Below, one piece after another: positions 38,986 through 57,569 of a stretch of DNA of 64,000 bases. How positions within the stretch are numbered: the first letter of the stretch is position 1; each line of letters starts with the position of its first letter. The stretch comes from an uncultured Acidobacteriota bacterium (GTDB lineage Bacteria > Acidobacteriota > Vicinamibacteria > Vicinamibacterales > Fen-181). A program made the translations under genes and the position numbers. The stretch lies in the NCBI GenBank assembly GCA_963701315.1, contig OY969603.1:5911320-5975319 (forward strand). The letters run 5' to 3'. Under the pieces are notes generated by a model. That model was not told the DNA's origin. It made no database searches and worked only from the letters and a program-made list of their open reading frames with translations.

Positions 38986-39143
38986 ACCAGCGGGACACAC
39001 CGGACGACCGGGCCTGAGCGGTGCCGAAAAGGCTGGAGCAATCGGCCCGAATCGGACACAATGCCGGAGTATAGCAGGCTGCACGCATCGGAGGGCGACT
39101 GCGTGTCGGAGGCCGGTTGGCGGGGCCGACCCTGCGGCGTGAT

Positions 39144-39965
39144 ATGACCGACCGCTGCGAGCTGTCCGTCGTCGTTCCCACCTACAACGAGCGCGAGCGC
39201 CTGGAAGAGCTCGTGGCATCCGTGTCGCACATCTACGACACCCATCACATCCAAGGCGAGCTGGTCGTCGTCGACGACAACTCCCCGGACGGTACGGGCC
39301 AGATCGCCGACGCCCTCAAGAGTCGGTTTCCTCTTCAGGTCGTCCACCGGGCAGGCAAACTCGGCTTGGGCAGCGCCGTGATCGAAGGGTTCGCGACGGC
39401 TCGGGGCGAGGTGCTCGGCGTGATGGACGCCGATCTGAGCCATCCGCCCTCGGCGCTGCCCGGCCTACTCGCCGTCCTGCGTGCGCTCGACGTGGACATC
39501 GTGATCGGGAGCCGGTACATCCCGGGCGGTGGCGCGGAGAACTGGCCGTTCCTGCGCCTGGCCATGTCGCGCGTCGCGTGCGTGCTCGCCCGGCCGCTCA
39601 CGTCCGTGCGCGATGCGACATCGGGACTCTTCCTGGTCAAGCGGGCAGCCGTCGAGGGCGTGCAGATCTCGGCCGCGGGATTCAAGATCTGCCTGGAGCT
39701 GCTCCTGCGGAGCCGGATTGACGCCGTTGCCGAGGTGCCGTACACCTTTGCCGACCGGGCCGCCGGAGAGAGCAAGATGACGGTGCGCGAGACGCTCGGC
39801 TACTTCCGCCAGCTGGGCGACCTCTGCTGGCTGAAACGGGCGGCGGGTCGGCGGCCGCGCCCCCGTTACCATCGCGTGTCCGAGGCCGACCTCAAGGCGT
39901 TGATCGCCGCAGCGTTCGCGAGCGACGCGGGCGGCGCCGCTAGGCCGCCGGCGCCCGCTCGGTGA
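39144..39965 (+). CDS. GT2 polyprenyl-phosphate glycosyl (mannosyl)-transferase, Dpm1/Ppm1-like
   Basis: ATG at 39144. Motifs LSVVVPTYNERERL, LVVVDDNSPDGT, GVMDADLSHPP and IVIGSRY are typical of dolichyl/polyprenyl-phosphate mannose synthases. The sugar specificity cannot be read from the sequence. Confidence 0.75.
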   Translation: MTDRCELSVVVPTYNERERLEELVASVSHIYDTHHIQGELVVVDDNSPDGTGQIADALKSRFPLQVVHRAGKLGLGSAVIEGFATARGEVLGVMDADLSHPPSALPGLLAVLRALDVDIVIGSRYIPGGGAENWPFLRLAMSRVACVLARPLTSVRDATSGLFLVKRAAVEGVQISAAGFKICLELLLRSRIDAVAEVPYTFADRAAGESKMTVRETLGYFRQLGDLCWLKRAAGRRPRPRYHRVSEADLKALIAAAFASDAGGAARPPAPAR

Positions 39966-41421
39966 CGGGTCCCCCCGCCGACGGTTCCCGCTGCCCGATC
40001 AGCATCCGCGTCACGATCTTCCAGACGAGCACCTGGTTGGTGAACACGATGCGCCCGATGTCGCCGAGGTGGCGCAGGATGTAGCGCGGGCGCAGGAAGA
40101 AGCGCCGCCGCGCGCGGCTGAGCGCCCTCATGACCACGTCCTCGTCGAGCCCGTTGCCCGAGAGGACGTAGTAGGCGTATTCCATCTTCGACCAGTCGTC
40201 GGTGGTCAGCAGCCCGTCGCGCCGCGCCTTCTCGTAGAGCTCGGTGCCCGGGTACGGCACCGCCGGGTAGAAGTTGGCGAAATCGGCGTCGAGCTCGATC
40301 GCATAGCGGGTCGTCTGCTCCATCGACTCGGGCGTCTCGCCCGGATAGCCGTAGATGAAGAAGGCGAACGACTTGATCCCCGCCGCGCGGAGGTTGCGGA
40401 AGGCCTGCTGGATCTTCTGGCGCTCGAGGCGCTTGAGCATGTCCTTGCGCACCGCGTCGGATTCCGATTCGATCCCCATCGACAGCATCCAGCAGCCCGC
40501 TCGCGCCAGGCGCTGAACGAACGCCGGGTCGACCAGATTGTCGGCCCGCGCGTTGGCGAGCCACCGGACGCCGAGGTTCCGGGCGATGAGCTCGTCGCAG
40601 AACTGCCCGAAGCTCTTGGCGTTCAGCGTGACCGTGTCTCCCCACAGGTAGAAGTAGTTGATGCCGTGCTCGCGCTGCGTGCGTTCGATCTCGTCCACGA
40701 GCACATGCGGCGCGCGTTCCCGGAACTTGTGCCCGTGGTGAAGCGGCACGACGCAGAAGTCGCACGAGTACGGGCAGCCGCGGCTCGTCTCGACCAGCAC
40801 GTACGACTTGTTCACCAGCGGGAGACGGTAGCGCCTGAGCGGGAGCAGATCCCACGCCGGATGCGGCATGTCGAGGAACCCGGAGAAGGTGCCCCGGCCC
40901 GTGTTCGGGATGACCACCCCGTGCCGCCGGAGCACGACCCCCGGGACGGCGGATGCGCCGTCGAGATCCTCGAGCGTCGCGATGGCCACCACCGCGTCCT
41001 CGGGTTCACCGACGACCATCGCATCCACGTGGGGCGCTCGCTCCATCGACTCGAGCGGCGCCGCCGACGCGTGCGGGCCGAAGCACACCAGCGGAGCGCC
41101 GTAGCGCCGCTTGAGTTTGGTCATCTCGCTGACGTCGAAGGCCAGCGTCGGCGTCGTGCTGCAGCACACGATCAGCGAGGGGGTGAAACCGTCGCGGTCC
41201 AGCCGGGCGATGACCTCTTCGGTCGTGGCGCGCTCCGCAGTCTGGTCGATCAGGCGGAAATCGAGGCCGCGCTGGCGGAACAGGGAGGCCATGACGATCA
41301 GCGAGTACGGCGGTTTGGTGGTGCCAAGGACCTCGTCCCGTTCCTGGCAGCGCCCTTGGCGGGTGAAAGCCACGCCGTTGACGAGCGGCGGATTGATGAG
41401 GAGCGTCGATCGGCCAATCAT
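39940..41421 (-). CDS. B12-binding-domain radical SAM enzyme (class B)
   Basis: 493 aa. The N-terminal cobalamin-binding-like domain reads LLINPP...PPYSLIVMASLFRQRGLDFRLIDQ...LIVCCSTTPT. The radical SAM cluster motif is ETSRGCPYSCDFC. The 3' end overlaps the convergent GT2 gene by 26 nt. Confidence 0.8.
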   Translation of the reverse strand: MIGRSTLLINPPLVNGVAFTRQGRCQERDEVLGTTKPPYSLIVMASLFRQRGLDFRLIDQTAERATTEEVIARLDRDGFTPSLIVCCSTTPTLAFDVSEMTKLKRRYGAPLVCFGPHASAAPLESMERAPHVDAMVVGEPEDAVVAIATLEDLDGASAVPGVVLRRHGVVIPNTGRGTFSGFLDMPHPAWDLLPLRRYRLPLVNKSYVLVETSRGCPYSCDFCVVPLHHGHKFRERAPHVLVDEIERTQREHGINYFYLWGDTVTLNAKSFGQFCDELIARNLGVRWLANARADNLVDPAFVQRLARAGCWMLSMGIESESDAVRKDMLKRLERQKIQQAFRNLRAAGIKSFAFFIYGYPGETPESMEQTTRYAIELDADFANFYPAVPYPGTELYEKARRDGLLTTDDWSKMEYAYYVLSGNGLDEDVVMRALSRARRRFFLRPRYILRHLGDIGRIVFTNQVLVWKIVTRMLIGQREPSAGGPVTERAPAA

Positions 41422-41458: not shown

Positions 41459-42694
41459 TTACCGAGGCCCGCCGACCGGGGTCAGGGCGAACGTCCTTCG
41501 CCCCTTCACCGCGGTGGCGGCCACGGGAACGGGCTCGGGCGACAACTCGACCTTGCAGCACCGCCGGCACACCGGGAAGATCTCGCGCTCCAGGAGCCGG
41601 CGGCGGAGCTCCACGTAGCGCTCGTTGTTCCAGACCTGGGCGAGCGTCGAGCTCGTCAGGTCGCCCACTTCGACCCGGATGAACGGGCAGAAGTACACCT
41701 TCCCGCTGAACCCGACGCGGGCGTTGAGGAACGGGTACAGGCACCGCCCGCGCAGCGGCGTCCCCGGAGTATAGTAGCCCTCGACCAGTTGGGGGTACAC
41801 CTTCGGCCGGTAGTCGAAGCGAATTCGCTGCTCGCGGCAGCGGGCTTCGAGCGCGGCCACCTGGCGGGCCACGTCGGCCGGGGCCAGGCCCGGGTCGGGC
41901 GTGACGAACGTCGCGATGAGGGACCGGTCGGTCTGGCCGAGGATCTTCAGGGTCTGATCGACTTCCTCGGGTGTCGCGTACATCAGGTGGTTGAGGCCGA
42001 TGGCGTCGACGCCGAGGTCGCGGGCGACGTCCACCATCCGGTCCAGCGCCTCGAGGCTCTCCCGCGCGACCGTCGTGTTAATGCTGACCTTGAGCGGCGC
42101 CCCGCTCACCCGAGCGGCTTCCTGCAGCCGCCGAAGGCCGGCGGCGGTGCGCGCGAACGTCCCCGCGACGCCGCGCGCCGCGTCGTGGAGCGTGTCGGGG
42201 CCGTCAATCGACACGCTGATGTGCCGCACGAATCCCGCGCGCGCCAGACCAGCAAGCGCCGCGGCCCGGGCCTCGGTGATGGCCGTGCCGTTCGTCGTCA
42301 GGTAGCCGCAGGCGTAGCCCTTCTCTCGGAACAGATCGAGCACCGCGTCGATGTCCTTCCGCACGAAGACCTCGCCGCCCGTCAAACTGACCTGGAGCCC
42401 TCTCTGCTGCGGGAACGCCTGCCGCAGCGCTTCCACCGAGAGCTCGCTCCGCCACTCGCCTTCGAGATTGAGCAGATCTCCGACGTAGCAGAAGGCGCAC
42501 TTGAGGTTGCACCGCATGGTCGCCTCGTACACCACGCCGGAGGGCAACGGGTCCGCCCGTCCCGTCCGGTCGGCGAGGAAGCGGTGCACGTCGCGGTCGT
42601 ACTGGCGGTGCCGCCACCGGGCGTGGAGCCGCTGGGCCGGCGGCCAGCGGCGCAGACGTCGGACGGCGAGTTCCCGCAGACGGCGGAAGGTCAT
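41459..42694 (-). CDS. radical SAM / SPASM-domain protein
   Basis: 411 aa. The CxxxCxxC motif is in ATMRCNLKCAFCY. The C-terminal auxiliary-cluster cysteines are GRCLYPF...VYFCPF...FPVCRRCCKV. Confidence 0.8.
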   Translation of the reverse strand: MTFRRLRELAVRRLRRWPPAQRLHARWRHRQYDRDVHRFLADRTGRADPLPSGVVYEATMRCNLKCAFCYVGDLLNLEGEWRSELSVEALRQAFPQQRGLQVSLTGGEVFVRKDIDAVLDLFREKGYACGYLTTNGTAITEARAAALAGLARAGFVRHISVSIDGPDTLHDAARGVAGTFARTAAGLRRLQEAARVSGAPLKVSINTTVARESLEALDRMVDVARDLGVDAIGLNHLMYATPEEVDQTLKILGQTDRSLIATFVTPDPGLAPADVARQVAALEARCREQRIRFDYRPKVYPQLVEGYYTPGTPLRGRCLYPFLNARVGFSGKVYFCPFIRVEVGDLTSSTLAQVWNNERYVELRRRLLEREIFPVCRRCCKVELSPEPVPVAATAVKGRRTFALTPVGGPR

Positions 42695-42713: not shown

Positions 42714-44283
42714 TCACTCGGAGGGCAGCGACCCCGACGCCGGCTCGGCTTTGCCGCTCGGTTTCTCGTTCCCGCGGGGAGAGGCCGCGCGGCTCGTCCG
42801 TGCCGACCAGACCGAGTCGAGCATCCGCCGCACCACGGCGAGTTCCTTTCGGTGGAAGAACCCCAGCACCCCGAGCAGGGTGGGGTACAGCACCACCACG
42901 ATCGCCCCGCGCGCCATCACCCCGACGACGGCCAGCCGGACGGGCGGCACGAGGACGGCCGCGACCAGGTACGCACCGACCCCGGCAGCCACGATGCGGG
43001 CCAGGCGTCCCCACTCGTGCGGGACCGGGTAGAAGCGATGCGACAACGCGTAGGCGACGAGGGCCAGCACCGCGTAGGAGATGACGTTGGCCCAGGCGGG
43101 CCCGATCATGCCGAAGCGGGGAATGAGGACGATGTTGGCCAGGATGTTCGCAACCGCGGCCGCCGCGGCCGCCAAGGGGTAGGTACTGCGTGTGCCGGGT
43201 GATGTTCATCCCGATCGAGGTGAGCAGGTAGACCCCCTGCAGGGTGACCGCGATGGTCGTCCACGGCACGACGACCGCCGCCTCGTGGAACTTCGCCTGC
43301 GTCATGAGCCGCACGAGGTCGTGCGCGACAGCCGACAGGCCGGCCGAGAGCAGGACCAGCACCGCCACGCCGTAGGTCGTGATGAGGGCGAAGGTCCGCG
43401 GTGCGTCCTTCTCCTTCATCGTCTGGAAGTAGAACGGCGCCCAGGCGTATTCGAACGCACTCAGGAAGAACTTGAGCGCGAGCCCGAGGCTCGAGCCGAC
43501 CTGGTACAGCCCGATGGTCCGGAGGTTCTGCATGCCGCCGCCCACCAGGAGGACTCGCATCAGGTAGGCGTCGGTCGCGGGCCCCACGATCTGCTGCGCG
43601 ATGCCATGCGGCACGCGCGGGAGGCCGAACCGGAGGACTTCGCCCAGGGTCTGCCACGAGAAGGTCTGGCGGATGAGCGGGACGAACCAGCGCAGGAGGA
43701 CGACGGCGAACGCGACCGTGATGACCAGCTCCGAGAGCACGAGGCCCATCACGCCGTAGCGCAACCCGACGACGAGCACCACGCGAGCGGCGACCGTGGT
43801 CGCCGACCGCGCGAAGGTGAGCACGGAGAACCGCCGGGCCTGGTTCCGGATCCGGAAGACGTGGAACGGGAGGAAGAAGAAGCCGCCGACGAAGGTGCTG
43901 AGGATGGTCAGCTGCAGCGCGAGGGTCTGGCCTTTCACCTGGAAGTAGCGCTCGGAGTAGAGCGGAGCGGCCAGGAGCGCGGCCAGGAGGATCGCCCCGT
44001 TGGCGGCGACCAGGAAGAAGAAGATCGTGCTCGCCAGCCGCTGGCGCGCGCGATCGTCGTCGCAGTCGTAGAAGAACCGCATGAACGACGCGTCGACGCC
44101 CCAGCGAAACACGATCTTCGCGACGAGGCTCGCCGTCAGCAACATGGCCCAGATGCCGTACCAGACTGGGTCCAGGTACTTCGTGAACAGCGGCATCAGG
44201 AGGAAGCTGACGATGTGCGTCGCGACGTCACCCATCCCGTAGACCGCGAGGTTTGTGCTGAGCGTCTTGAGTTTCTGGAGCAC
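42714..44283 (-). pseudogene. Wzx-type oligosaccharide flippase (MOP/polysaccharide biosynthesis protein family), one frameshift as assembled
   Basis: ORF 42691..44283 is flippase-like up to ...GMNITRHTQY. It continues in frame 42714..43175 (AAAAAAVANILANIVLIPRFGMIGPAWANVISY). The shift lies in or next to ggtactg (43182-43188). Confidence 0.7.
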
Positions 44284-44284
44284 G

Positions 44285-45004
44285 TCAACCCCGCCCGGCC
44301 TTGCGCAGGCGCAGGATGTTCAGGAAGCACCAGCCGGGTATCGGCAGGAGCCGCGTCAGCCAGCGGTGCCACGCGAGCAGCTTCGCCGGGTGACGGCGGA
44401 TGAGATGGGTGAGGACGGGCAGCGTGGGGAAGACCCCGCGGCGCTCGACCACGTCGAAGCCCGCGCGCGCGATGAGGCCGAGGTACTCGGCGATCGGGCG
44501 GTCCCCTGGGTGCTTCAGCACGCTGGCGGTCCGGATCAGCCGGCCGGTCAGCAGGAAGTGGACTCGCGACTGCAGGTGCGCCAGGTTGGGGACCGACACG
44601 AGGGCCTCGCCGTCTGGCGAGAGCACCCGGTTCAGTTCGGCGAGCGCCACACCCTGCGCGTCGAAGCCGAGGTGTTCCAGCACGTCGAGGCACAGGACCC
44701 GAGCAAACGCGGCGTCTGGGTATGGCAGGGCCGTCACGCTTCCATGCCGGACGCGGTCCGAGACGAAGTTCTCGTCGACGCCTTCGATGGCCAGCCGCGT
44801 GGCGTACTCCGCCACCAGGACCCCTTCACCGCAGCCGGCGTCGAGCACGGACGTGCCGGGGGGAAGACGGTTGAGGTACTTCCGCACGAACTCGAGCTTC
44901 GCGAGGTACGTCGGGTAGAAATCCCAGGCAGGATCCGGCGTGGCGTGGTAGTCCCCACGCGTCGCGTACTCACCCGACCGCCGCGGCGCAGCCACGTCAG
45001 GCAT
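44285..45004 (-). CDS. class I SAM-dependent methyltransferase
   Basis: Motif I is SVLDAGCGEGVLV, with FARVLCLDVLEHL and LSPDGEALVSVPN. Its stop lies 1 nt from the Wzx start. Confidence 0.8.
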   Translation of the reverse strand: MPDVAAPRRSGEYATRGDYHATPDPAWDFYPTYLAKLEFVRKYLNRLPPGTSVLDAGCGEGVLVAEYATRLAIEGVDENFVSDRVRHGSVTALPYPDAAFARVLCLDVLEHLGFDAQGVALAELNRVLSPDGEALVSVPNLAHLQSRVHFLLTGRLIRTASVLKHPGDRPIAEYLGLIARAGFDVVERRGVFPTLPVLTHLIRRHPAKLLAWHRWLTRLLPIPGWCFLNILRLRKAGRG

Positions 45005-45064: not shown

Positions 45065-45964
45065 CTAGACCTGTCCGTCCGACCCGGGTGACGGACTCTG
45101 CTTCGACTTGTCCGGCGCCGTTGGCGGCTGGCCAGGCTTGACAGGGAGCGTCGGCCCGTATGGGCTGGCGTTGGGCTTTGCGGGCGGCATCTCCTGATCG
45201 GGCAGGCCATACGGGTTGCGGAACGACGTCGGTGCGGGAGCCGTCGGCACTCCAGGTCGAGCCTGACCCGTCGGGACGGTCGCCGGCGACGCGGGAGTCA
45301 TTCCGGGGTAGGGACTGGTCTCCAGCTTCGTCGGCGCGGTCGACAGGCCGGGGACCGACGAGCCGGAGGCGGGCGACTGGCCAGACGGCGGGGCGGCGCC
45401 ACCCGAGGGCTGCACGGGCTCGCTACCACCCGGCGCGACCGGCGCCGCGGAGCCGGGGAACGTCCCATCGGGCGCGAGGAACCCATCCGGGCGCCCGGCG
45501 GCGCCGCCCGGGAACGGGCGGACCCCCCGCCCGCGGGGCATCGCGTCGCCGCGGGCGGCCGGCGCTGGCGGCGCCGACACGGCACCCGGCGGGGGAGCGA
45601 TGCCCGGCAGCAGGAGGAGCTTCTCGTAGCGCGAGGCGCCGATGGATGCGTCGACGCTCCGGGGCGCCGCGATGAAGCCGGCGGTGCCGCGCAGCAGCGT
45701 CGCAATCGCCTGTCCTTCGGGCACGTCGACCAACTGCAGCGAGACCGGGCCGCCGGCCAGCCGGTCCAGGTTGGTGACGTTGACCGCCCCGAGGCGGGCC
45801 CATTCGGCCAGAATCTGTCGCGGCGTCGCGTCGGCGGCGATGATGCTGACCCGGCCGTCGTGGAAGGTGATCGTCACCTCTCCGGCCCAGACAGGGCTGG
45901 CCCAGACGGCGAGCACGAGCGCGCCCAGCGCCAGAAGTCGGCCTGCGTTCGCGCCTTCCCCCAC
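45065..45964 (-). CDS. membrane-anchored STN-like domain protein with long Pro-rich tail (paralog of 56649..57437)
   Basis: GTG at 45964 is preceded by GGGAGG at 7-8 nt. The start lies 5 nt after the upstream stop. The anchor or signal is RLLALGALVLAVWASPVWA. A ~75-aa domain follows (GEVTITFHDGRVSIIAADATPRQILAEWARLGAVNVTNLDRLAGGPVSLQLVDVPEGQAIATLLRGTAGFIAAPR) whose pattern resembles secretin/TonB short N-terminal (STN) domains. The last ~190 aa are a Pro/Gly/Ala/Ser-rich tail. Confidence 0.5.
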   Translation of the reverse strand: MGEGANAGRLLALGALVLAVWASPVWAGEVTITFHDGRVSIIAADATPRQILAEWARLGAVNVTNLDRLAGGPVSLQLVDVPEGQAIATLLRGTAGFIAAPRSVDASIGASRYEKLLLLPGIAPPPGAVSAPPAPAARGDAMPRGRGVRPFPGGAAGRPDGFLAPDGTFPGSAAPVAPGGSEPVQPSGGAAPPSGQSPASGSSVPGLSTAPTKLETSPYPGMTPASPATVPTGQARPGVPTAPAPTSFRNPYGLPDQEMPPAKPNASPYGPTLPVKPGQPPTAPDKSKQSPSPGSDGQV

Positions 45965-45969
45965 CAGTC

Positions 45970-47619
45970 TTACCTCCCGACCCGATCGCCCGGCGCCTCC
46001 GGGCTCTCCAGAGTATACGCCCGGCCCTGCGCGCGGCGTTCCAGGAAGGTGAAGTACCCCGATTCGTGATTCACGGTGTCGTCGAGCCACACGGCGCGGA
46101 CCAGGTAGCCAGCGTCCACCTCGCGCAGGATCTCCGGCGGCACGACGTCCTCGACCGGTGCGGGCGACGGCGTGAAGAAGCGCGAGAACATCAGATACGT
46201 CGGGCGTTTCGCGAGGATGTACGGGAAGTCGGCCTTCTGGTGCCCGGGCATGCCCTTTTCCTGGTTTCGCGCGACAGGCAGGTGCGCGATATGCGTGTCC
46301 GCCAGCCCGAGGTAGTCGTACACGGTCATGTCCGCGTAGTAACCAATCGCCCCAATCGCGTCGGTGGCCACGCTGTCAGTCGCCGCCTTGCGGTAGCGAT
46401 TGAAGAACCGCCCGATGAGCGTGAGGCGGGCCACGCTCCAGCGTTCGACCTGCACGCCGCGGTAGTTCCCGTGCTGCTGGGACGGGCGCGCGAAGAACCG
46501 TTCGTCGACGGGCGTCGAGTGGAAGGCCGTCGCGCCTGCCGCGACCCCTACGACCGCCGCAAAGGCCCAACGCTTCGACCGGGACACGATCGCCGGGCGG
46601 AGGCTGGCCAACAGGGCCGCCGCTCCGATGTACAGCGGCGCGAGGACCGGCACGAAGAACCGGTGCATCGCCATGTAGTCGCCGCCGACGGCCACGACGT
46701 AGGCCGCATGGACGAGGAACACGGCGACGCACGTGACGACCAGGGCGTGAGCACGCACCGCCTCCGTTGCGCGACGCAGGCCCGGCAGGGAAGGTTGGTT
46801 GGCCTGTCCCTCCCAGAGCGCGAGCAGGCCCCAGGGCACCAGCGGGGCGACAAACTGCACGAAGAACCCAGCCGCCAGCAGCCCGCCCCGGAGGACCTGC
46901 CAGAGTCCGCCGCCGGTCTTGGCATAGAAGGAGTTCGGCAGCGGGTACCCGTAGTAGGCTAGACGCCACACAACGTAGCCCACGAGCGGAACCGCGTAGG
47001 CGGCGCCTGCGACCAGGAGCGTCCCCGCGTGCCGACGGGTGTCGCCCTGGGCGGCCAGCACAGCGATTGCGAGGAACGTGCCGAAGACCAACAGGCCTTC
47101 GGGTCGCACCAGCGTCGCCACGAGGAGCGTGAGGGCGGCAGCCACCAGGGTCCGGCGCTCGCCGGAGCGCCAGTAGGCGGCAAACAGCGCCACGCTCGCG
47201 AGCACGAGCGCCGCGAAGGGCACCATCTCCATCCCGCTCGTGGCCCATGCGGCGAACGGCCCGGCGACGGCCAGCATGAGCGGGGGCACGAGGGCGAACT
47301 CCGCCGACCATCCGGCCAGGCGGCGGCCGACGCGGTAGGCAAGGACGATGGTCGCGGCCCCGGCGGCCAGGCCGACGACCTGCGCCACCCGGGGCATGTC
47401 CAGCCCGACCTTCATGGCGAGCGCCGAGAGGAGCACCCACAGCAGGCTCGTGTAGCCTTCGACGGGTGGCTGTCCGGGATTCCAGGTCAGCCCGAAGCCC
47501 TCGACCAGGTTCCGGGCATAGCGGAAGGTGATGTACGCGTCCTCGGCGAGGCCGCTGAGGTACGCAGCGTGAGCGAGGTAGAGGAGGAGGATGGCGGTCA
47601 GCCAGCGCCCCGGCTTCAT
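45970..47619 (-). CDS. polytopic GT-C-like membrane glycosyltransferase (family unassigned)
   Basis: The ORF track gives 45970..47655; I take the ATG at 47619 (MKPGRWLTAILLLYL), with the alternative GTG at 47655. The first-loop motif is AEDAYITFRYARNLVEGFGLTWNPGQPPVEGYTSLLW. More than ten TM segments follow, then a C-terminal soluble domain. Confidence 0.5.
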   Translation of the reverse strand: MKPGRWLTAILLLYLAHAAYLSGLAEDAYITFRYARNLVEGFGLTWNPGQPPVEGYTSLLWVLLSALAMKVGLDMPRVAQVVGLAAGAATIVLAYRVGRRLAGWSAEFALVPPLMLAVAGPFAAWATSGMEMVPFAALVLASVALFAAYWRSGERRTLVAAALTLLVATLVRPEGLLVFGTFLAIAVLAAQGDTRRHAGTLLVAGAAYAVPLVGYVVWRLAYYGYPLPNSFYAKTGGGLWQVLRGGLLAAGFFVQFVAPLVPWGLLALWEGQANQPSLPGLRRATEAVRAHALVVTCVAVFLVHAAYVVAVGGDYMAMHRFFVPVLAPLYIGAAALLASLRPAIVSRSKRWAFAAVVGVAAGATAFHSTPVDERFFARPSQQHGNYRGVQVERWSVARLTLIGRFFNRYRKAATDSVATDAIGAIGYYADMTVYDYLGLADTHIAHLPVARNQEKGMPGHQKADFPYILAKRPTYLMFSRFFTPSPAPVEDVVPPEILREVDAGYLVRAVWLDDTVNHESGYFTFLERRAQGRAYTLESPEAPGDRVGR

Positions 47620-47725
47620 GCAGGTTCCCGTGTCTCCGACCGCCGCGGGCTCCACTCGTGTCGAGCTGAGCCGAACGGGGCCGCCGTCGTCGACCGGCCC
47701 CGTCCGCGCGTTCCTCTGCGTCCGC

Positions 47726-50700
47726 CTACCGAGCTAGGAAGGCTGGCGTCGCGTCGCCGCCACGCCAGAACTGCCCCGAGCCGGCCACGCGGGTCCAGTA
47801 GACGGCCTCCTCGACGACGATCGGCAACGGCGTCGCGTCGGAGCTGACGACCTTGGTCGAGAAGGCGTTGCTCACGATGTTGCTGAACACCGGGCCGTTG
47901 GCCGGCACCTGGTTGTTCATCCACAGCGTGCGCCGTGTCTTGGCCGGGATCACAATCGTCTGCGTGGCCGTGGTCCCCGCATCCGAGTAGGTGGTCAGCG
48001 TCACCGTGACCGGCGAGGTGTTGAAGTTCGCCAGCAGGATGTACGTCTCGTAGCCACTCATGGTGGAGCCCTCGGGCACGTGCCACTCGATGCCCTGCGT
48101 CTCCGCTCCCATCGCGGTCGAGCCCTCGGTCCACCCCGTGCCCCAGTACATCGAGCGCTCGACGACGACCGACGCCCCGCCTTCCGTGTGGAACTCCGCG
48201 GCGACGCCCGTCTGGGTGCCCGAGACCTGGTTGGCCAGGTAGAGGGTCCGCCTGGTACTGGGTGCCAGCGTGTAGCTGGTCGTGACAGGCGTCTGCGCCA
48301 CGCCGTTGACGGGGGCGAGGTTGTAGGTCGCGTCCACCGTCACACTCGTCGCATTCGGGTTGAAGAGCAGGTAGTAGGTGTTGAACCCGGTCATCGCCGT
48401 GCCCTCGGCGAAGTACCAGTCGGGGCCCGCCGCCGGACTCCCGATGGCGTCGTGGCCGCCGCTCCAGTTGGTGCCCCAGTACATCGTGCGCTCCGCGAGC
48501 ACGCCCACGGTGGACGTCACCAGCGCGGCGAAGTTCTTGCCGGCCAGCGCGGCCACCTGGTTGGCGGCCAGGGTCCACCGGCTCTGTTTCGCCACCGTCT
48601 GGGTCACGCTGGTGATGACACCCGTCCCGTCGTCCGCCACGAACTGGACGGTGACCGTCGCGTCGGTCTGGGTCGGGTTGAACACGATGTAGTACGTGTC
48701 GAACAGCCCGCCCGGCGTCGTCAGCCGGGTCCCTTCCGCGAAGTACCACTGGGTCGGCAGCGTGCCGCCCGCGGGCACGTACCAGCCGGTCTTGACGTGC
48801 CCCGCGCCCGACAGCAGGCCGGACGCACCGCCCCAGTACATCGTGCGCGCGACGTAGATGGGCAGGCCGGACGGAATGTTCTCGGCGGCGTCGGGCACCG
48901 ACTGGATGACGATGGCGTACGAGCCGGTGACCCCGTTGACCAGCGTCGACAAATCCACCGTGGCGCGGCTCTGCGCCGGGACCGTCGCCTCGACGAAGGT
49001 CGGCTGCGTCACACCCTCCTGCACCACCCACGCCCGGACCCGTACCGGGCTGCTGTTCTCGTTCGCGATGAGGTAGTAGGTGCTGAACCCGTTCGTTCCG
49101 CCCACCGCGCCTTCGGCGAACACCCAGCTGCCACTGGGCGCGGTCGCGGCCGACAGGTCGATGACCGCCGGATCGTTGACCGAGAAGCTCCACCAGGTGC
49201 CCGCGTCAGCCTCGCGCGTGGTGGTCGTCGTCGCCCGGACCTGCCAGTAGAACGTACCCGACCCAAGGCCTGACAAGGTCGCCGAGGTGGCCGTGCCCAT
49301 GTTGATCCAAGCCGTGTGGCACACGTTGTCGGTCGTGACGCCCACGCACAACTCGAATGCGGCGCCGTTCACTGCCGACCAGCTCAGCGTGACGGGGTTG
49401 ATACCGAGAGAGTCGCCGTTGGCTGGCGACACCTTCCCGAAGGTGGCCGCCGCGGTACCAACCGTAAAGACATTCCAGGTGCCGTTGTCCGCGTAGACCG
49501 AAGAGCCGCTCACCGTGGCGCGCACCTGCCAGTAGTAGGTGCCGGCCGTGAGCGTGCGGCCCGTCGCCGTGGAAGCGGCGTTCGACTGCCATGCGGTGTC
49601 GCAGGCCGGGCCCGTCGTCGTCACGCAGACGTCGTAGTTGGTCGCGCCCGTCGCGCTGCCCCAGTTCATCGGCACGTAGGTGGCAAGGCCCGTGGCGCCG
49701 GCGGCGGGCGCGGTCTTGGTGAAGGCCGGCGTCGGGACCGTGAAGCTCCACCACGTCGCGCCGTCCGCGTCGGTGGTGGTGGTCGAGGTCACCGCCCGCG
49801 CCTGCCAGTAGTAGGTGCCGGGCGCCAGGCCCGTCATCGCGACCGACGTGGCGGAGGTGGAGAACCATCCCGTGTGGCAGGTCCCGTCGTGCGAGGTCCC
49901 CACGCACACCAGGTAGCTCGCGCTGGTGACCGTGGCCCACGAGAGCGTGACGAGGTTGCCGGTCAACGCGGTGCCGCTGGCCGGCGCGCTCTTCGCGAAC
50001 GGCGGCGGGCCGACGATGAAGGTCCACCAGGTGCCGCCATCCGCGTAGATGAGGGAGCTGTCAACCGTGGCCCGCACCTGCCAGTAGTAGGTGCCGTTGC
50101 TCAGGCTGGAGAAGGTCGTCGCCGTCGACTGGCCGTTGGGCTGCCAGGACGTGCTGCAGGAGGGTCCGGTCGACGACATGCAGAACTCAAACGCGGGGGT
50201 CGTGCCGACCGTCGCCCATGTCACCGGCACGCTGGAGGTGAGATTGGCCGTCCCGTTCGTCGGCGTCGACTTGCCGAACGACGGTCCGGCCTGCGTGGTG
50301 AAACTCCACCAGATGCCGGAGTCGGCGTCCACCCAGGACCCGTTCACGTCGGCCTGCACCTGCCAGTAGTAGGGGGTGGCCGCTGCGAGCCCAGACACAT
50401 TGGCCGTTGTCGCCGTTCCGGTGGAGACCCAGGAACTGCCGCAGGTGCCGTTCGTCGTGCCGATGCAGTACCTGATACGCGGTGGCGCCCGTCGCAACGC
50501 CCCAGGTCAACGTCACGGGGACCGAGACGCCGGAGGCGCCGTTGCCCGGCGACGACTTGGCGACGCTCCCCACCGTCGGCTCGCGGGAGCTGGTCGTGAA
50601 GAACTCGTACCACATCGACGAGTTGCCGTTGTCGGTCACCAGGATCCATTGCGCCTGCGTCGGGTTCGCGGCGATCGCGGGGTTGAAGACCCCGGCTCCG

Positions 50701-53289
50701 CCGAGCGAGACGGTGAGGCCGCCGCTGTTGAGCGTGCCGTCCTGGTTCAACTCGAGGACCGCATCCTCGGCCCCGCCGGCGTAGGTCACCAGCGCAAACG
50801 TGTTGGAGACGGGGTTGTAGGCCATCCGCCGCAGCGCGTCGCCCCCACCGTAAGAGGTCGATACCGCGAACGCTGAGCCGTCGAACGAGCCACTGGCGGT
50901 GTAGCGTTGCGCGTAGATGCCCGCGGCCGACGAGTCTCCCGCGCCAGGCTGGAGGTAGAAGACCTGGACCGACTTGCCCGTGGCCGAATTGTAAGCGACG
51001 TCCCCTCCGTACAGGGACGTGCCGGACACGACCCCGTTCAGGACCCGCATGGCCAAGCCGATGGGGCCGGCACCGGTTCCTGCCTGCACCCATCGGGCTT
51101 CGATGAAGTTGTACGTCAAGGCCGAGCCCTGGTAGCCGACCAGGAAGCGGTCCGTCGTGGGGTTGTAGGCGACGGCCGACCGGTCATGGCTGGATGAGTC
51201 CGTCGTAATCGACAGGTCGCTGCCGAGGAGCGTCCCCGTGTCGCCGATGAGGCGGCCGTGGATTTCACCGTCGTTGATCTGCGGCCACGTGACCAGGTAC
51301 TGGTGACTGACCGTGGAGTAGCTCAGCCCCGGGCGGGTCTTCCACAGGACCCCGGCGCCAATCGCGCTAATGGAGAAGTCCCCCGAGACGAAGGTGGGCA
51401 CCCCGTTGCCGAGCGCCACCACACGCCCATAGAGGTCAGGGTAGCGTACCGTTGTTGCGGTTGTCCGACCACACCACCAGGCACGACCCGGCGCTCGGGC
51501 TGCACCAGACCTTGGGCGTCTGCGCGTAGACGGTGCCGCTGTCGATGCGGAAGGCGCTGGACGCCGGGGTCCCGTCCGGGCGGATAAAGACGCCCTGGAT
51601 GAACCCCTCGCCCGTGAGCGCGAGGTAGACACCGTTCACCGACTCATAGGCCACTTCCGGTAAGACCAGGCCCCCGCTGATGCCCTGCGCCTCAGAGGCC
51701 GACCCCGACCACGAGAGCTGCCCGGCCCCGGCGCCCTGCGTGAGGAAACTCCACCAGCCGCCGGTCGCGTCCGTCCAGGACCCGCTCACCTGGGCCTGGA
51801 CCTGCCAGTAGTAGGTTGTGCTCGCACTGAGGTTGGAGACCTGGGCCGACAGCGAGGTCCCCGCCGACTGCCACCCGGTGTCGCACGTGCCGCCGCTCGT
51901 CATCGTGACGCAGACCTGGTAGGCCGTGGCTCCCGTCATCGCGCTCCACGAGAGCGTGGTTGGAGTCGAGATCCCAGTCGAGCTGTTGTCCGGCGACAGC
52001 TTGTAGAATGACGTCTGGCCGACACCTCCCCCTTCACGCGTTCCCGACTGGACGAACTGGCCCCAGAACGACGAAAAGCCGTTGCTGGTCACGATCAGCC
52101 ACTGGGCCTGCGCCGGGTCGGCCGCGATCGCGGGGTTGTAATTCCCCAAGCCGTCGTTGATGTTGGTGGCGATGATGCCATTGTCGACCGGGGTGCCGTC
52201 ATGGTGCAGCTCGATCACCGCGTCTTCAGTGGTCGAGCTGTGCGTCGCCATCACGAACGTGTTCGTGTAGGGGTTGTAGTCGGTCCGCATCGCGTCGTAG
52301 GCGCCGTAGCCATGTGCCGTCGCGACCAGGAATGGCGTGCCATCCAACGAACCATCGACGTTGAAGCGCTGGGCATAGGTGCCGAGGACGTTCGGGTCTC
52401 CCGTCCCGGGCGAGTACCTGAAGAACATGAGAAGCTTCCCGGTCGTCGTGTTGGTCACAACGTCACCGCCCCACACGTCCGTCAGGGGTACCACGCCGTT
52501 CATGATCCGCAGGGCCGGTCCGGCGACGGCCGGCTGCGTCCCGGCCTGGACCCATCGCGCCTCCTGGAAATTCACTCCCGGCTGGGAGCCGTCATAGCCG
52601 ACTAGGAACCGGTCCGTCGCGGGGTTGTAGGCGGCCGCTGTCTGGTTGTGGAAGTTGCCGTCCGCCTGTATGGCGACCACACCGCCGATGAGCTGTCCGG
52701 TGTCGCTGACGGCCCGGCCACGGACGCTGCCGTCGGAGGTCTGCCGCCAGGTGACGAAGTACTCGTGGCTGGCCGTGGAGTAGGCCAACCCGGGCCGTCC
52801 ATCCTCCCACCAGACCCCCGCGCCAATGATGCTAATTGGAAAGTCGCTGGTCACGAACACCGGGGTCGATCCGCTGATGGACACGATGCGGCCATATAGG
52901 TCTGGAGGCCCGTTCCCGACGATGTTCCGGCCGTCCACCCAGACCACCAGGCACGACCCGGCGGCCGGATTGCACAGGGTCCGTGTCATCTGCGCGTAGG
53001 CCGTGCTGCTGTTGATTTGAAAGGGAGCCGTCGCAAAGGTCCCGCTCGGGTTGATGTAGCGGCCCCGGATGATGCCCGCGCCGGTCGTGGTCAGGTAGAC
53101 GTTGTGCGAGGCATCGTACGCGATGTCCGGCCAGCGGATGCCGCCCGCAAGCGTCGGGATGTTGAACGAACTGCCCACGTCCGACACCTGCGCCCACGCT
53201 GTACCGGTGGCGACGATCGACAGGGTGAGCAAAACGGCCGCGACATAGGTACGGGCAACGGTCGCCTGGCGTAGATGGGCAACCAGCAC
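47726..53289 (-). pseudogene. giant (~1850 aa) secreted repeat protein: 2 propeller-like modules, 6 Cys-pair FN3-like repeats, 4 'WYFAEG' repeats; two frameshifts as assembled
   Basis: Three ORF-track pieces (51436..53289, 50187..51632, 47726..50497) join exactly at repeated sequence. SCLVVWSDNRNNGT/PDLYGRVVALGNG parallels SCLVVWVDGRNIVGNGPPDLYGRIVSISGS, and GATAYQV/CIGTTNGTC parallels GATAYQVCVTMTSGGTC. The shifts lie at gtac 51446-51449 (or the T giving the TGA at 51436-51438) and at cagtacc 50466-50472. The signal peptide is AAVLLTLSIVATGTAWA-Q. An AAGGAGG lies before GTG 53289. Confidence 0.7.
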
Positions 53290-53295
53290 GAGAAT

Positions 53296-53302
53296 CCTCC
53301 TT
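53296..53302 (-). promoter_or_regulatory. Shine-Dalgarno sequence (AAGGAGG) of the giant repeat-protein gene
   Basis: Plus-strand cctcctt at 53296-53302 is AAGGAGG on the minus strand, 6 nt upstream of the GTG start at 53289. Confidence 0.55.
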
Positions 53303-53736
53303 GGGCAGGACCAAGCGTCAGGAAAGGACGGCCGCCTCGACTCAGCCGCACCAATCGGTGTCTCTGGATTTTTCGGCGGAGCAAGAGAACTTCGGTAGCG
53401 TACCCGATGCGTCCAAGCCCGTCAACGCCTTTGCTCAGTGGCGGTTGCGGGGGCGCGAGCCGCGCAGCGCGCCGACGACCCGCCGGGCGCCTGGTGCGTG
53501 TGCACGGTGCCCGGGACCCGAGACCCACATCGGGTACAATCGACCGCGCGCGGGTTTTCGGCACCCGTGCCAATGCACTTCCTGCCGCCGGAATTGGCCA
53601 CGACGCAGGTCGCTCATTGGGTATTCGTTGGGACGCGTTTCCCGAGATCCTCGGCTCGCTCGGTCAGGCCAAGGACACACGGTCGCGAGAGACCTCAGCC
53701 AGGGGAGCGCCGCGAACGAGCGAGGGCATCGACGTC

Positions 53737-55356
53737 ATGACCACATCGGATGATCGGCGGCCGGCCCGGCAGTCGGCCTGGCTCCTGTGGGTGTCGCTGA
53801 TCATCGTCGTCGGCGCATTCCTAGTGCGGCTTCCCGGAATCGCAGAGCCGATGGGCCCGGACCAGGGCGTTTACGCGACGGTCGGGTGGGGGCTCCAGCG
53901 TGGCTTGGCCCTGTACCGCGACCTGTGGGAAACAAAACCCCCAGGGATCTACATAACCTACCTGCTGGGCTTTTCGGTGTTCGGGGCCCGAGAAGCGTCG
54001 ATCTTCTGGCTCGATTACCTAGCCGGCGCGCTAACAGCACTCGTGCTTTTCGACCTCGGCCGCCGTGTTGTCAGCGTTGGGTTTGGCGCGCTGGCCGCGG
54101 CGGTCTTTGCCATCGGCACGCTGCCTGCGGCTCGCCACCTGTTTGGCGGATTCCTCGAACGCGCGATTTCGGAGAAGTTCATCTCGCTGCTGGCCGCCGC
54201 CGCCGCGTGGGCCACGGTGGTGGCGGTGACGCGCACGCGCGACCGCTGGTCACTCGTGACCGGCGTGCTCGTCGGCCTCGCCGCCGTCTTCAAGCCTTTT
54301 GCCCTCGCCTACTGGCCCGCGTTGGTGCTGTGGACGTGGTTCGACAGGGACATGGCGCGTGCGCGCCGATTTGCAGCCTATTCCCTGGTCGGGCTCCTGA
54401 TCGCCCCTGCCGCGGCGCTGGCGTGGCTCGTGGCGAAGGGTATCGCCGGGGATGCCTGGGTCGCTCTCGTGGAGTACAGCCGGGCCTACCTCGCGGTCGG
54501 CGGAAGAGGCTTCGGTTTCGTAGTGAACCGATTCACCCACGAGGTCTGGTGGCGGGTGAAGACCGACGACGTGTGGGGTCTCGGAAGCCTGAGCGCCGTG
54601 CTGGCCTTCTGCGCCTGGCACTGGCGTTCGACCAAGCCCGGCCGGATGGCCTCGCTCGCCATCGTGTGGCTGGCGGCGGCGCTCCTGGCCGTCCTCTCGA
54701 ACGGGCCACGTCTGTTCATGACCTACTTCGTCCCGGCACTGGTTCCGCTATGCCTGCTCATCGCGTGGCTGCTCGACCAGACACTCGGGTCTGGACGTCG
54801 TTGGAGAGTGGCGGTCGGGGTCGTGGTCCTCTGCGCTGGAGGTGCCATGGCGGTGCGCTCGGGGTCGGTCAACCGGGCCATCAGCATGACGGGCTGGGAC
54901 GCCCGGTACCTGGCCGGTCGCACCAGCCGGCAGGAGTACTTGCGACGGTTCCAGTCGCGGGACTCGCAGGCGTTCTCTGCCGCCGACAACGCCCAGCTCG
55001 CTGACTACATTCGGACGCACAGCGGTCCGCAGGACCGCATCTTCGTTTTCGGGATGACCGGCGGCACGTATTTCTCGAGCCAACGGCTGCCGGCCAGCCG
55101 GTACCTGTTCGTCTATCCGGCGGTATCGAAGCTGGTCGACCGGCCGGAGTTTGACGTCAAGACGCTCGCCGGCCAGCTCACGCGCACCGCACCCCGCTAC
55201 ATCGTGCTTCAGCGGCACAACGCAGACACCTTTTCGGGCTGGCGAGCCGAGGACTCGTTCGCGGCTCCGCCCATGCTCGCCCTGCTCGAGGACTACCGCC
55301 GGGAAACGGAGATCGGGGATTTCGTCCTGTACCGCAGAATCGGCGGCCGTCCGTAG
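53737..55356 (+). CDS. GT-C-type membrane glycosyltransferase (paralog of 37381..38985)
   Basis: ATG at 53737 inside ORF 53275..55356. The sequence is AWLLWVSLIIVVGAFLVRLPGIAEPMGPDQGVYATVGWGLQRGLALYRDLWETKPPGIYITYLLG, compared with GGDQGIYAYVGQSILRGELPYRDAWDQKPPGIHLTYAAM in the paralog. It is polytopic, and the soluble C-terminus ends GDFVLYRR. Confidence 0.6.
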   Translation: MTTSDDRRPARQSAWLLWVSLIIVVGAFLVRLPGIAEPMGPDQGVYATVGWGLQRGLALYRDLWETKPPGIYITYLLGFSVFGAREASIFWLDYLAGALTALVLFDLGRRVVSVGFGALAAAVFAIGTLPAARHLFGGFLERAISEKFISLLAAAAAWATVVAVTRTRDRWSLVTGVLVGLAAVFKPFALAYWPALVLWTWFDRDMARARRFAAYSLVGLLIAPAAALAWLVAKGIAGDAWVALVEYSRAYLAVGGRGFGFVVNRFTHEVWWRVKTDDVWGLGSLSAVLAFCAWHWRSTKPGRMASLAIVWLAAALLAVLSNGPRLFMTYFVPALVPLCLLIAWLLDQTLGSGRRWRVAVGVVVLCAGGAMAVRSGSVNRAISMTGWDARYLAGRTSRQEYLRRFQSRDSQAFSAADNAQLADYIRTHSGPQDRIFVFGMTGGTYFSSQRLPASRYLFVYPAVSKLVDRPEFDVKTLAGQLTRTAPRYIVLQRHNADTFSGWRAEDSFAAPPMLALLEDYRRETEIGDFVLYRRIGGRP

Positions 55357-55448
55357 GTCCCCCGGCGAGGTCCTCCGGCCGCTGCCCCCGAACTCGCGGC
55401 CGTGCCGGTCTCGGCCGCCCTCCGGTTCCGGCTGGAGGGTGTGAGAAG

Positions 55449-56287
55449 TTACGGTTTGGCGTGATCCGATCCGAGGACAACCCTGGGCCGGCCCCTGGAC
55501 CACTCCGTGAGCGCACCACCAAACCTGTACCGAAGCAGGTGGACGAAGAACTCGAGGCACGCCGAGGGGCGCACGTGGCTCAGCCCGTTCGACCGCATCC
55601 GCGCGAAGACGTTCATTTCGAGGACCCGGACGCCGAGGTAGTGGGCCTTGATCATCATCTCCGGGTCGATGAACCAGTTCTTCGACTGCAGGTCCATCTC
55701 CGCGAGCACCCGACGATGCAGGATTCTTGGGGCTGCCGTTGACGTCGGCCGACCCGAGGCGCGGCCAGAGCAGCCAGACGAAACCGTTGTAGAGGACCGA
55801 CACGACCTTGCGCGTGACGCCGTCCATGCGGAAACGGCGTCGGACCTTGCCGAGGACGTTCCCGTCGGTGTGCTTGAGTACTTCGAAGAGCCGCGCCGCA
55901 TCCTCGGCGTCCACTTGCCCATCCGCGTGGATGATGCCGACCCAGGGCGCCGAGCAGACGGGAATCGACTGCAGGACCCCGTTGCCGTAGCCTTCGTTCC
56001 GCTCGACTCGGTGGTAGACCACCGGCAGGCCCTCGGCGACGAACCCCTTGATGACCTCGCCCGTGCGATTCTGTGGACCCGTTGTCACAGGCGACCAGCT
56101 CGAGGCGGTGTCCGGCTTGCGCGAACGCCTGCAGGAGGCGAGGGATCGTGTACGGGATCACGTCCTGCTCGCAGTAGCACGGCATGATCAGCGAGATTTC
56201 GGACGCTGCGTCCGCGCTTTCGCAGGCCGCTCCTGTGAGCGCGGACTGTTGATTGAACCGGTCGGCGGCGCCGGTCTCACTGGGCAT
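55449..56287 (-). pseudogene. GT2 glycosyltransferase (Dpm1/polyprenyl-phosphate-sugar-synthase-like), two frameshifts as assembled
   Basis: Three frames join. ISLIMPCYCEQDVIPYTIPRLL...LELVACDNGST is in frame 55655..56287. DRTGEVIKGFVAEGLPVVYHRVERNEGYGNGV...GIIHADGQVDAEDAARL...DVNGSPK is in frame 54748..56088. ILHRRVLAEMDLQSKNWFIDPEMMIKAHYLGVRVLEM is in frame 55449..55922. Deleting one T from gattc at 56067-56071 and from gattc at 55722-55726 restores a single frame. Confidence 0.7.
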
Positions 56288-56648
56288 CGCAGAAACCCAC
56301 CATCATCACGGGCCGCTGGCGGCGTCGCAGCGCAACGACGACATCGGGTGCGGAGGCCCACTGTCTCGGCAGACGCGGTGTGGCCCCTTCGCGTTGGGCC
56401 CTCGGCGGCTGCCGGGACGAGGAGGGTGATCGGTGATGCGTAACCCAGGCCCGTCTGCGTCGGCGCCGACAGTAGTCTATCAGACGGCCGCGTCGGCCGC
56501 GTGATCGGTTGCACAGATCCGTGGGAGCCGTGAAGCCAAGAGGCAGCGGCCGCGCCGGAGCTGCTGCTCGAACCGGCCCACCCGACCGCAGAGCGGGGCT
56601 TGCCGCGGAGGCCGCCAATCACCCAGAGACGATCAGCAATGTGTCCGT

Positions 56649-57437: not shown

Positions 57438-57569
57438 CTCTCGCCTCACCGCGGTCCCAGTATAGCGCCCCGCCGCGGGCACTCCAACCTCGGCGCGACC
57501 ACGCACCAGGTTGGCCCCCTCCGGGACCAGGGCCGCCCCGGCGCGGATCCACGGGCTTGGCCGGAGGGC

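Follow-up and report, generated by a model that had tools for sequence, protein, structure and literature searches.

What might a giant secreted repeat protein be doing at the head of a gene cluster equipped to build and export a glycan, and is the gene, which is broken into pieces in the deposited sequence, intact at all? These questions are raised by a gene on the minus strand of a 64,000-nucleotide stretch (the window) of contig OY969603.1, from the genome of an uncultured Acidobacteriota bacterium. With its two frameshifts bridged, the gene encodes a signal peptide, two beta-propeller modules, six FN3-like units and a C-terminal tetrad of ASRAH repeats, an architecture of which we are almost certain. 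Homologues of the propeller occur beside the same glycan genes in about ten other loci, and our tentative view is that the product is a partner of the glycan made there.

Three overlapping open reading frames (ORFs) make up the gene: 53289-51436 (617 amino acids, aa), 51632-50187 (481 aa) and 50497-47726 (923 aa), which three-frame translation around the two junctions (J1 and J2) places in frames 0, 2 and 1. Dropping one base at each of ~51444-51446 and ~50468 produces a single 1,853-aa ORF with no internal stops. This agrees with a preliminary description of the window, made from the letters alone, that had bridged the frameshifts to read one secreted repeat protein of ~1850 aa, and the perfect AAGGAGG ribosome-binding site reported there is present (Table 1). 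A third-position GC frame plot was too noisy to be informative within the gene because Thr, Ser, Gly and Ala codons push up second-position GC, and a scan of 47400-53900 for promoters and terminators found none. The N-terminus, MLVAHLRQATVARTYVAAVLLTLSIVATGTAWA followed by QV, shows the Sec layout when read by eye, with an n-region, an h-region and an AxA site for cleavage, and a matching N-terminus is found in the orthologues P0001 and P0006 and in a 910-aa protein at locus L002 (P and L numbers denote related proteins and loci, the latter drawn from species-representative genomes, metagenomes and exact-protein look-ups). From these features we infer that the product is exported via Sec. Behind the signal peptide, the domains run in the order propeller, FN3, propeller, five FN3 and four ASRAH repeats, and Ser and Thr together account for 22.5% of the product, compared with 9.2% in eleven neighbouring proteins.

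The two modules that had been put forward as probable propellers, each followed by an FN3-like unit, are 50% identical to each other over 388 aa (aa 34-430 against aa 524-903, E 4e-118), a likeness that, as with the other internal repeats, goes well past chance, and the second is 82% identical to the second module of P0001. An AlphaFold2 model of module 1, based on a seven-row alignment, is all-beta with ~27 strands (pLDDT 83.4, pTM 0.88). Foldseek returned 931 matches to this model at E <= 1e-3, the best being seven-bladed WD40 and YncE propellers; the best matches in the PDB have TM scores of 0.5-0.6 at ~10% identity. Judged by the model, both modules are beta-propellers, probably with seven blades. 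The WD40 Pfam profile has no match in the giant protein at E <= 1; a faint match to 'delta-60 repeat' is all that is seen. A word-index search with module 1 gave a single extra protein, whereas an exhaustive hidden Markov model search exposed a superfamily, with blades in 14,094 representative proteins at E <= 1e-3 and in 942 at E <= 1e-30. By sequence the blades belong to a large class of bacterial secreted repeat proteins separate from WD40, in which a full-length N-terminal propeller is paired with DUF5719, TIG plus Calx-beta, FG-GAP, Y_Y_Y or InlB-B repeats.

All six of the ~88-aa FN3-like repeats with a conserved Cys pair that the preliminary description had counted are found, at aa 428-520, 908-1001, 1002-1093, 1094-1186, 1187-1279 and 1280-1372. 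One unit used as query recovers the five others (E 5e-9 to 3e-29), and alignment of all six with five units from relatives, eleven in total, shows K, P, W, C, C, W and WQ to be invariant. Individual Pfam matches, to Pur_ac_phosph_N, fn3 and Ig_Rha78A_N, all lie below the family cut-offs; a profile of the eleven units matches the PDB entry 3mpc ('Fn3-like protein') at E 5e-5 and, less strongly (E 0.004-0.03), further FN3 structures. Unit number varies among orthologues, with 0, 1, 6, ~8 and ~17 all represented.

The four C-terminal repeats, for which no family had been named beyond a loose likeness to DUF5719-type proteins, are an ASRAH tetrad (ASRT superfamily, Pfam DUF5719), and the likeness proves to be genuine. 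PF18986 (DUF5719) matches the giant protein at 33 bits against a cut-off of 26.2 (E 4.5e-8), and the first repeat recovers the other three at E 3e-5 to 4e-8. The C-terminal 482 residues, modelled by AlphaFold2 with 57 homologues, form four beta-sandwiches (pLDDT 94.8, pTM 0.93) with boundaries at ~48758/48757, 48398/48397 and 48062/48061, and the pTM of the model suggests that the repeats are held in a fixed arrangement. Searched singly with Foldseek, they match the eight-stranded beta-sandwiches of ASRT (Anabaena sensory rhodopsin transducer, 2ii7-2iia) and Thermotoga TM1070 (1nc7) with probability 1.0 and TM scores of 0.64-0.83. The ASRAH superfamily, which includes PF07100 (ASRT) and PF18986, was defined by De Souza, Iyer & Aravind 2009 (PMC2739507), its signature being a Trp that follows a polar residue where strand 1 begins, together with a near-invariant Asn ending strand 2. 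Each of the four window repeats has both elements (SW, QW, DW and EW in strand 1; ...IAN, ...VFN, ...LFN and ...LAN in strand 2), and N166, N272 and N383 are invariant across the alignment of 57 homologues.

Sugar binding by ASRAH domains was predicted from the cleft of the TM1070 tetramer and from gene contexts, and secreted forms have been described as dyads in an actinobacterial lipoprotein encoded beside a glycosyltransferase and as tetrads fused to Chloroflexi amidases (PMC2739507). Most homologues of the window tetrad carry PF18986 and some also PF07100. The tetrad also terminates TIG arrays, S8 proteases, GH18 proteins, CE4/polysaccharide deacetylases, CAP proteins and FN3 proteins (P0039-P0094), the tetrad-ended secreted proteins coming from Acidobacteria, Chloroflexi and Actinobacteria, a distribution that fits a portable C-terminal binding or anchoring module. 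A full-text literature search for 'DUF5719' returned no papers.

Turning to the state of the gene, both frameshifts are very probably assembly artefacts, with an intact gene in the organism. P0001, a 2,223-aa protein from a soil metagenome that is 67% identical to the window protein over aa 1-1386, is continuous over J1 (...SDSRNNNSNGYPDLYGR...) and over J2 (...GATAYQYCVST...), and orthologues read through J1 in frame (...RNNNSNGYPDLYGR...). Compared by tblastn with the syntenic P0001 locus (L001), the three pieces of the giant gene show 76%, 82% and 69% identity in order, with no fall after either shift. All L001 proteins were run against the window in the same way, which showed the genes for Wzx, a SPASM radical SAM enzyme and an NAD-epimerase to be split as well; a GT2 gene is also split. 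With two insertions in the giant gene and one in each of these four, six +1 events in five genes lie within ~17 kb (43.2-58.9 kb). Four of the six fall on GTAC, two convert GATC to GAATC and five are preceded by CAG. In GT2 the split interrupts the canonical DNGSTDRT motif, the epimerase is 88% identical to its orthologue before the shift and 87% after it, and the orthologues in L001, L002 and L017 are intact at the insertion sites.

The window contains 203 GTAC sites, such that a 10-nucleotide (nt) interval overlaps one with a probability of ~4% and, by our own arithmetic, the chance of at least four of six events falling on GTAC is ~4e-5. The motif is not avoided in the window, for which base composition predicts 181 sites and dinucleotides 108; the counts for GATC and CTAG are 403 and just 18. 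The source contig, at 7.04 Mb, is typical of long-read assembly. Nanopore signals are known to be perturbed by modified DNA, and the resulting errors are detected through frameshifts relative to homologues (PMC8011154). A uniform error type at short palindromic motifs would be explained by an effect of base modification on the long-read consensus, and the pattern as a whole points to a consensus error tied to particular motifs, perhaps where these are methylated.

Should the frameshifts in all five genes instead be real, the island would be decaying in this strain and the giant gene would be a true pseudogene. That the shifts are present in the deposited sequence, that the record itself calls the last piece as a separate 817-aa protein (P0031) and that several genes of a single island are affected together all speak for such decay, which we nonetheless consider improbable: the six events are uniform, each a +1 in a GTAC or GATC context; no nonsense mutations, deletions or larger indels are found in the five genes; and orthologue identity is equally high on either side of each shift. 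A related giant gene on a long-read-style ENA contig (L013, 6920-11581) is likewise broken, into five frames, whilst its pieces are 90-98% identical to an intact 1,550-aa protein (P0114) from another contig; one of its junctions lies at GTAC (CAGTACGTGACA) and the other three lie elsewhere. It is therefore unlikely that the pieces are genuinely separate or dead, an outcome that the preliminary description had named as fatal to its reading. Programmed +1 frameshifting was rejected because five unrelated genes share the same kind of insertion and their orthologues are in frame. A GTAC at 34747 was also considered as a seventh frameshift and rejected, since it merely marks where a methyltransferase gene meets one for a GNAT acetyltransferase. 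Three points weigh against the artefact explanation: in the compared stretch, ~4 of ~70 GTAC sites and 2 of ~140 GATC sites are affected; GATC joined the motif pattern post hoc; and the case is built on comparison of assembled sequences. With six frameshifts in five genes at GTAC or GATC, pseudogene calls in this assembly are not to be trusted without read-level checks.

How firmly is the gene tied to its surroundings? Propeller homologues lie in the same cluster at L001, L002, L013, L014, L016, L017, L018, L020 and L021 and on the P0006 contig, relatives being Acidobacteria/Vicinamibacteria metagenome-assembled genomes and Luteitalea. Their partners in the cluster are Wzx, two radical SAM enzymes, GT2 and PMT_2-type genes, and a PMT_2 gene directly adjoins the propeller gene in the window, L001, L014 and L021. 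Propellers of 27-32% identity are still cluster-linked; around more distant ones, in loci of Actinomycetota, Chloroflexi and Myxococcota, the cluster is absent, and the link is therefore specific to this propeller subfamily. Only the propeller is kept in every cluster-linked homologue, the C-terminal modules being swapped between ASRAH, FN3, FG-GAP and none (Table 1). The variant cluster at L018 also holds a HEAT_2 protein and an 871-aa PMT_2 protein. Comparison of these loci shows a specific and ancient link of the propeller to the genes for Wzx, the radical SAM enzymes and GT-C. The association with glycosylation and export genes that had been suspected of the window gene is thus shared by ~10 loci, and since the propeller is retained in all of them, the proposition that its homologues are never linked to glycosylation genes fails. 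A literature search on the cluster in Vicinamibacteria found nothing relevant.

Profile searches recovered the methyltransferase, the Wzx flippase, the two radical SAM enzymes and the divergent GT-C gene (the last as PMT_2) that had been listed as neighbours. For two other neighbours the earlier labels fared less well. The gene immediately downstream, named as a GT-C enzyme, does encode a polytopic protein, with a hydrophobic N-terminal two-thirds, an EDAYITFRYA motif and 73% identity to the product of a 571-aa gene in L001, and it has a weak, sub-threshold NCBIfam match to the putative glycosyltransferases LA_3751/LA_3752 (E 3e-11); it has no Pfam match, and PDB sequence searches with the two GT-C-like neighbours gave none either. 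The 341-aa Pro-rich protein encoded next had been called STN-like, a label that is not borne out, as the STN profile does not match it even at E <= 10. This protein has a paralogue at 56655-57437, and both consist of a signal peptide, a conserved ~95-aa domain without a family match and a tail with ~24% Pro. Homologues of the first follow the propeller gene in L001, L002, L013, L014, L016 and L017, and the second follows a 317-aa SPASM enzyme in most related loci with enough flank. It is plausible that the two are O-glycosylation acceptors or periplasm-spanning linkers.

Beyond the B12-binding radical SAM gene lie an opposite-strand GT2 gene and two more PMT-type GT-C genes, such that at least four PMT/PMT_2-type or GT-C-like genes occur within 20 kb (35635-37269, 37381-39219, 45970-47655 on the minus strand and 53737-55356 on the plus strand), an unusual density of GT-C paralogues for one island. 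The island also encodes GT4, GT9, epimerases, a GNAT acetyltransferase, another methyltransferase and a second SPASM enzyme. For a 519-aa protein at 29977-31536, no family gave a convincing match. A 778-aa ORF at 56188-58524 on the minus strand is a read-through artefact downstream of a frameshift, its orthologue being the 317-aa radical SAM/SPASM enzyme (~57573-58524) followed by a separate 261-aa gene, 56655-57437. After its frameshift the GT2 frame (54748-56088, minus strand) continues over ~600 nt at the 3' end of the convergent PMT_2 gene; the true end of the GT2 gene probably comes before that of its ORF, a further error or a spurious ORF extension being likely, and L001 has no GT2 gene at the corresponding position.

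Table 1. Features of the giant gene, insertions and neighbouring genes in the window, and architectures at related loci
Feature	Position	Strand	Details
Whole gene	47726..53289	-	1,853 codons as one frame after removal of two single-base insertions; stop codon 47728-47726
Ribosome-binding site AAGGAGG	53302-53296	-	6 nt 5' of GTG start at 53289; read directly
Signal peptide, aa 1-33	53191..53289	-	Cleavage motif AWA before Q; sequence features
Beta-propeller module 1, aa 34-427	52009..53190	-	Probably seven blades; AlphaFold2 and Foldseek
FN3-like unit 1, aa 428-520	51730..52008	-	Cys pair; weak Pfam and profile match
Beta-propeller module 2, aa 524-907	50568..51720	-	50% identical to module 1; interrupted by J1
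FN3-like units 2-6, aa 908-1372	49172..50567	-	Ser+Thr 29.7%
Four ASRAH (ASRT-superfamily / DUF5719) beta-sandwich repeats, aa 1373-1853	47729..49171	-	Pfam, AlphaFold2, Foldseek
Frameshift J1	51441..51456	-	Extra base in AAC GGT ACG [C] TAC CCT, GTAC site; frame 0 to 2
Giant gene insertion at J1	~51446	-	GGTACG[C]TAC, coding strand
Frameshift J2	50465..50474	-	Extra base in TAT CAG [G] TAC TGC, GTAC site; frame 2 to 1
Giant gene insertion at J2	~50468	-	CAG[G]TACTGC, coding strand
Wzx insertion	~43183 (43174-43193)	-	CAGTAC[C]TAC, coding strand
GT2 insertion	~56073 (56060-56075)	-	ACAGA[A]TCGC, coding strand
SPASM radical SAM insertion	~57642 (57640-57656)	-	CCAGA[A]TCTGT, coding strand
NAD-epimerase insertion	~58942 (58940-58960)	-	CAGTAC[C]GGG, coding strand
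Polytopic membrane protein, GT-C-like, 561 aa	45970..47655	-	Next gene; likely ATG start at 47619
Small secreted Pro-rich protein, 341 aa	45065..45970	-	Signal peptide, ~95-aa globular domain, Pro/Ser/Thr/Ala-rich tail
Paralogue of small secreted Pro-rich protein	56655-57437	-	Adjoins second SPASM enzyme
Class I SAM methyltransferase	44285..45004	-	
Wzx-type flippase (Polysacc_synt)	42717..44283	-	+1 insertion ~43183-43190
Radical SAM / SPASM enzyme	41459..42694	-	
B12-binding radical SAM enzyme	39940..41421	-	
PMT_2-type GT-C, divergent	53737..55356	+	Start set by orthologue alignment; ATG 53275 probably unused
L002, L016, L017			910 aa: signal peptide, one propeller, poly-Pro linker, ASRAH tetrad, no FN3
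P0114 / L013			One propeller, ~8 FN3, ASRAH tetrad
L001 (P0001)			Two propellers, ~17 FN3, no tetrad
L018	7113-9701, 9893-12436		Two tandem propeller + FG-GAP genes
L021			510-aa propeller alone, adjoining PMT_2 gene

What the protein does with the products of these genes can be approached from its parts. We tentatively favour a model in which it is a non-covalent partner of the cluster's glycan, binding or handling it, over one in which it is a glycosylated acceptor. The protein would act outside the cytoplasm, on a glycan made and flipped by the cluster. Its four ASRAH beta-sandwiches, by analogy with the ASRT tetramer, may pack as one rigid body with sugar-binding clefts, and the tetrad would hold the protein on the glycan; the FN3-like units would be a spacer of variable length; and the propellers, of which the N-terminal one is cluster-specific, would provide a functional head that binds or handles the polymer or another ligand. 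This model is preferred because the tetrad is a predicted sugar binder, many orthologues dispense with the FN3 array and the small Pro-rich proteins are likelier acceptors. Several observations weigh against it. L001 (the closest orthologue), L018, L021 and P0006 keep the linkage whilst lacking the tetrad, and the tetrad is therefore not essential to the cluster role; sugar binding by ASRAH is itself a published prediction (PMC2739507); the structural matches of the propeller, to WD40 and YncE, are generic and provide no clue to a ligand or to catalysis; and the model does not account for passage of a Sec-exported protein through the outer membrane that a diderm acidobacterium has.

The protein might alternatively be an acceptor, its Ser/Thr-rich surface, and above all the FN3 array, being O-glycosylated in the periplasm by the PMT_2-type GT-Cs with lipid-linked sugars flipped by Wzx as donors. 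This is compatible with the partner model, and the Ser+Thr content of the product, higher still in the FN3 array, the number of PMT/PMT_2-type or GT-C-like genes close by, the PMT_2 genes that adjoin propeller genes and the conservation of the linkage itself are all in its favour. Ser/Thr richness is, however, common among secreted all-beta proteins, and PMT_2 is a broad GT-C family that includes lipid and polysaccharide glycosyltransferases. The FN3 array is absent from the cluster-linked proteins of L002, L016, L017 and L021; with the propeller as the sole constant part and FN3 units numbering 0-17, the array is therefore unlikely to be the key acceptor. The small secreted proteins at 45065-45970 and 56655-57437, with their Pro/Ser/Thr-rich disordered tails, are more classical candidates for this function, and the acceptor model, which draws its support from composition and gene context, seems to us rather unlikely. 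More doubtful still, in our view, is a reading in which an undescribed Vicinamibacteria-like pathway for an envelope glycoconjugate has the propeller as its dedicated extracytoplasmic subunit and the tetrad is a general glycan-anchoring module. Such a pathway would comprise Wzx, two SPASM and one B12 radical SAM enzymes, several PMT_2-type GT-Cs and the two Pro-rich secreted proteins, and in it the propeller would work with the GT-Cs, for example by presenting or measuring a polymer or protein acceptor. Finally, the protein could be a generic adhesin, S-layer-like surface protein or enzyme for which the glycan-gene neighbourhood has no meaning. All of its modules are, after all, widely shuffled extracellular domains, with the propeller profile matching thousands of representatives and FN3 arrays and ASRAH tetrads found in many unrelated secreted proteins. 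Such an explanation is hard to reconcile with a propeller subfamily that keeps its place in the cluster in ~10 loci, down to 27% identity and with the other modules swapped, whilst distant propellers lack the cluster; nor were S-layer-specific features found in the giant protein, and a meaningless neighbourhood appears improbable.

Comparison with described systems places the partner model in context. Like known ASRAH proteins, the window repeats have the beta-sandwich fold and the Trp/Asn signature, form a tetrad in a secreted protein, as in the amidase-fused family, and are linked to glycosyltransferase genes, as is the actinobacterial DUF5719 lipoprotein. They differ in that the fusion partners of the tetrad are beta-propellers and FN3 units rather than an amidase, the protein has no lipobox, the host is acidobacterium-like where known hosts are Chloroflexi or Actinobacteria, and a family-specific T-Y-Y motif in strand 2 takes the place of the His and Cys that contact the ligand in the ASRT family. 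Large FN3/Ig-array adhesins (for example the 'extending region' of PDB 6xi3) resemble the window protein in their array of ~90-aa beta-sandwiches between functional end modules and in a unit number that varies among orthologues. The Foldseek match to 6xi3 is, however, at the level of the domain (TM 0.12), the window protein has no RTX, LPXTG, autotransporter or type IX secretion system (T9SS) sorting signal, and its candidate anchor is a predicted sugar-binding tetrad.

The neighbourhood also recalls protein O-mannosylation by actinobacterial Pmt and the eukaryotic PMTs, in that PMT/PMT_2 genes adjoin genes for Sec-exported Ser/Thr-rich proteins and the cluster includes a flippase for a lipid-linked donor. 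In the window, by contrast, these are accompanied by Wzx, GT2, GT4, GT9, epimerases and radical SAM enzymes, typical of polysaccharide synthesis, and the PMT matches are weak (E 1e-8 to 1e-9, near the family cut-offs). Retention on a glycan has its own precedents: SLH domains hold proteins on a pyruvylated secondary cell-wall polymer, and RsaA of Caulobacter is held on O-antigen. By analogy, the window protein may be retained non-covalently, by a dedicated domain, on the glycan of the linked genes; unlike the proteins of those systems, it has no SLH or RsaA-like domains.

The modules of the giant protein are all of known kinds. Undescribed in the literature searched are an ASRAH tetrad joined to propellers and FN3 units, the widespread occurrence of the tetrad at C-termini and the conserved cluster itself. 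The predicted sugar-binding ASRAH tetrad is thereby extended from amidases to many secreted proteins and, if it is indeed a general glycan-anchoring module, would display a wide variety of secreted enzymes at the surface of cells in these phyla. Soil Acidobacteriota, an abundant group, are poorly understood, and to our knowledge almost nothing is known of their envelope glycans. A cluster that recurs in ~10 independent contigs offers a concrete and testable point of entry to the glycans of the acidobacterial envelope.

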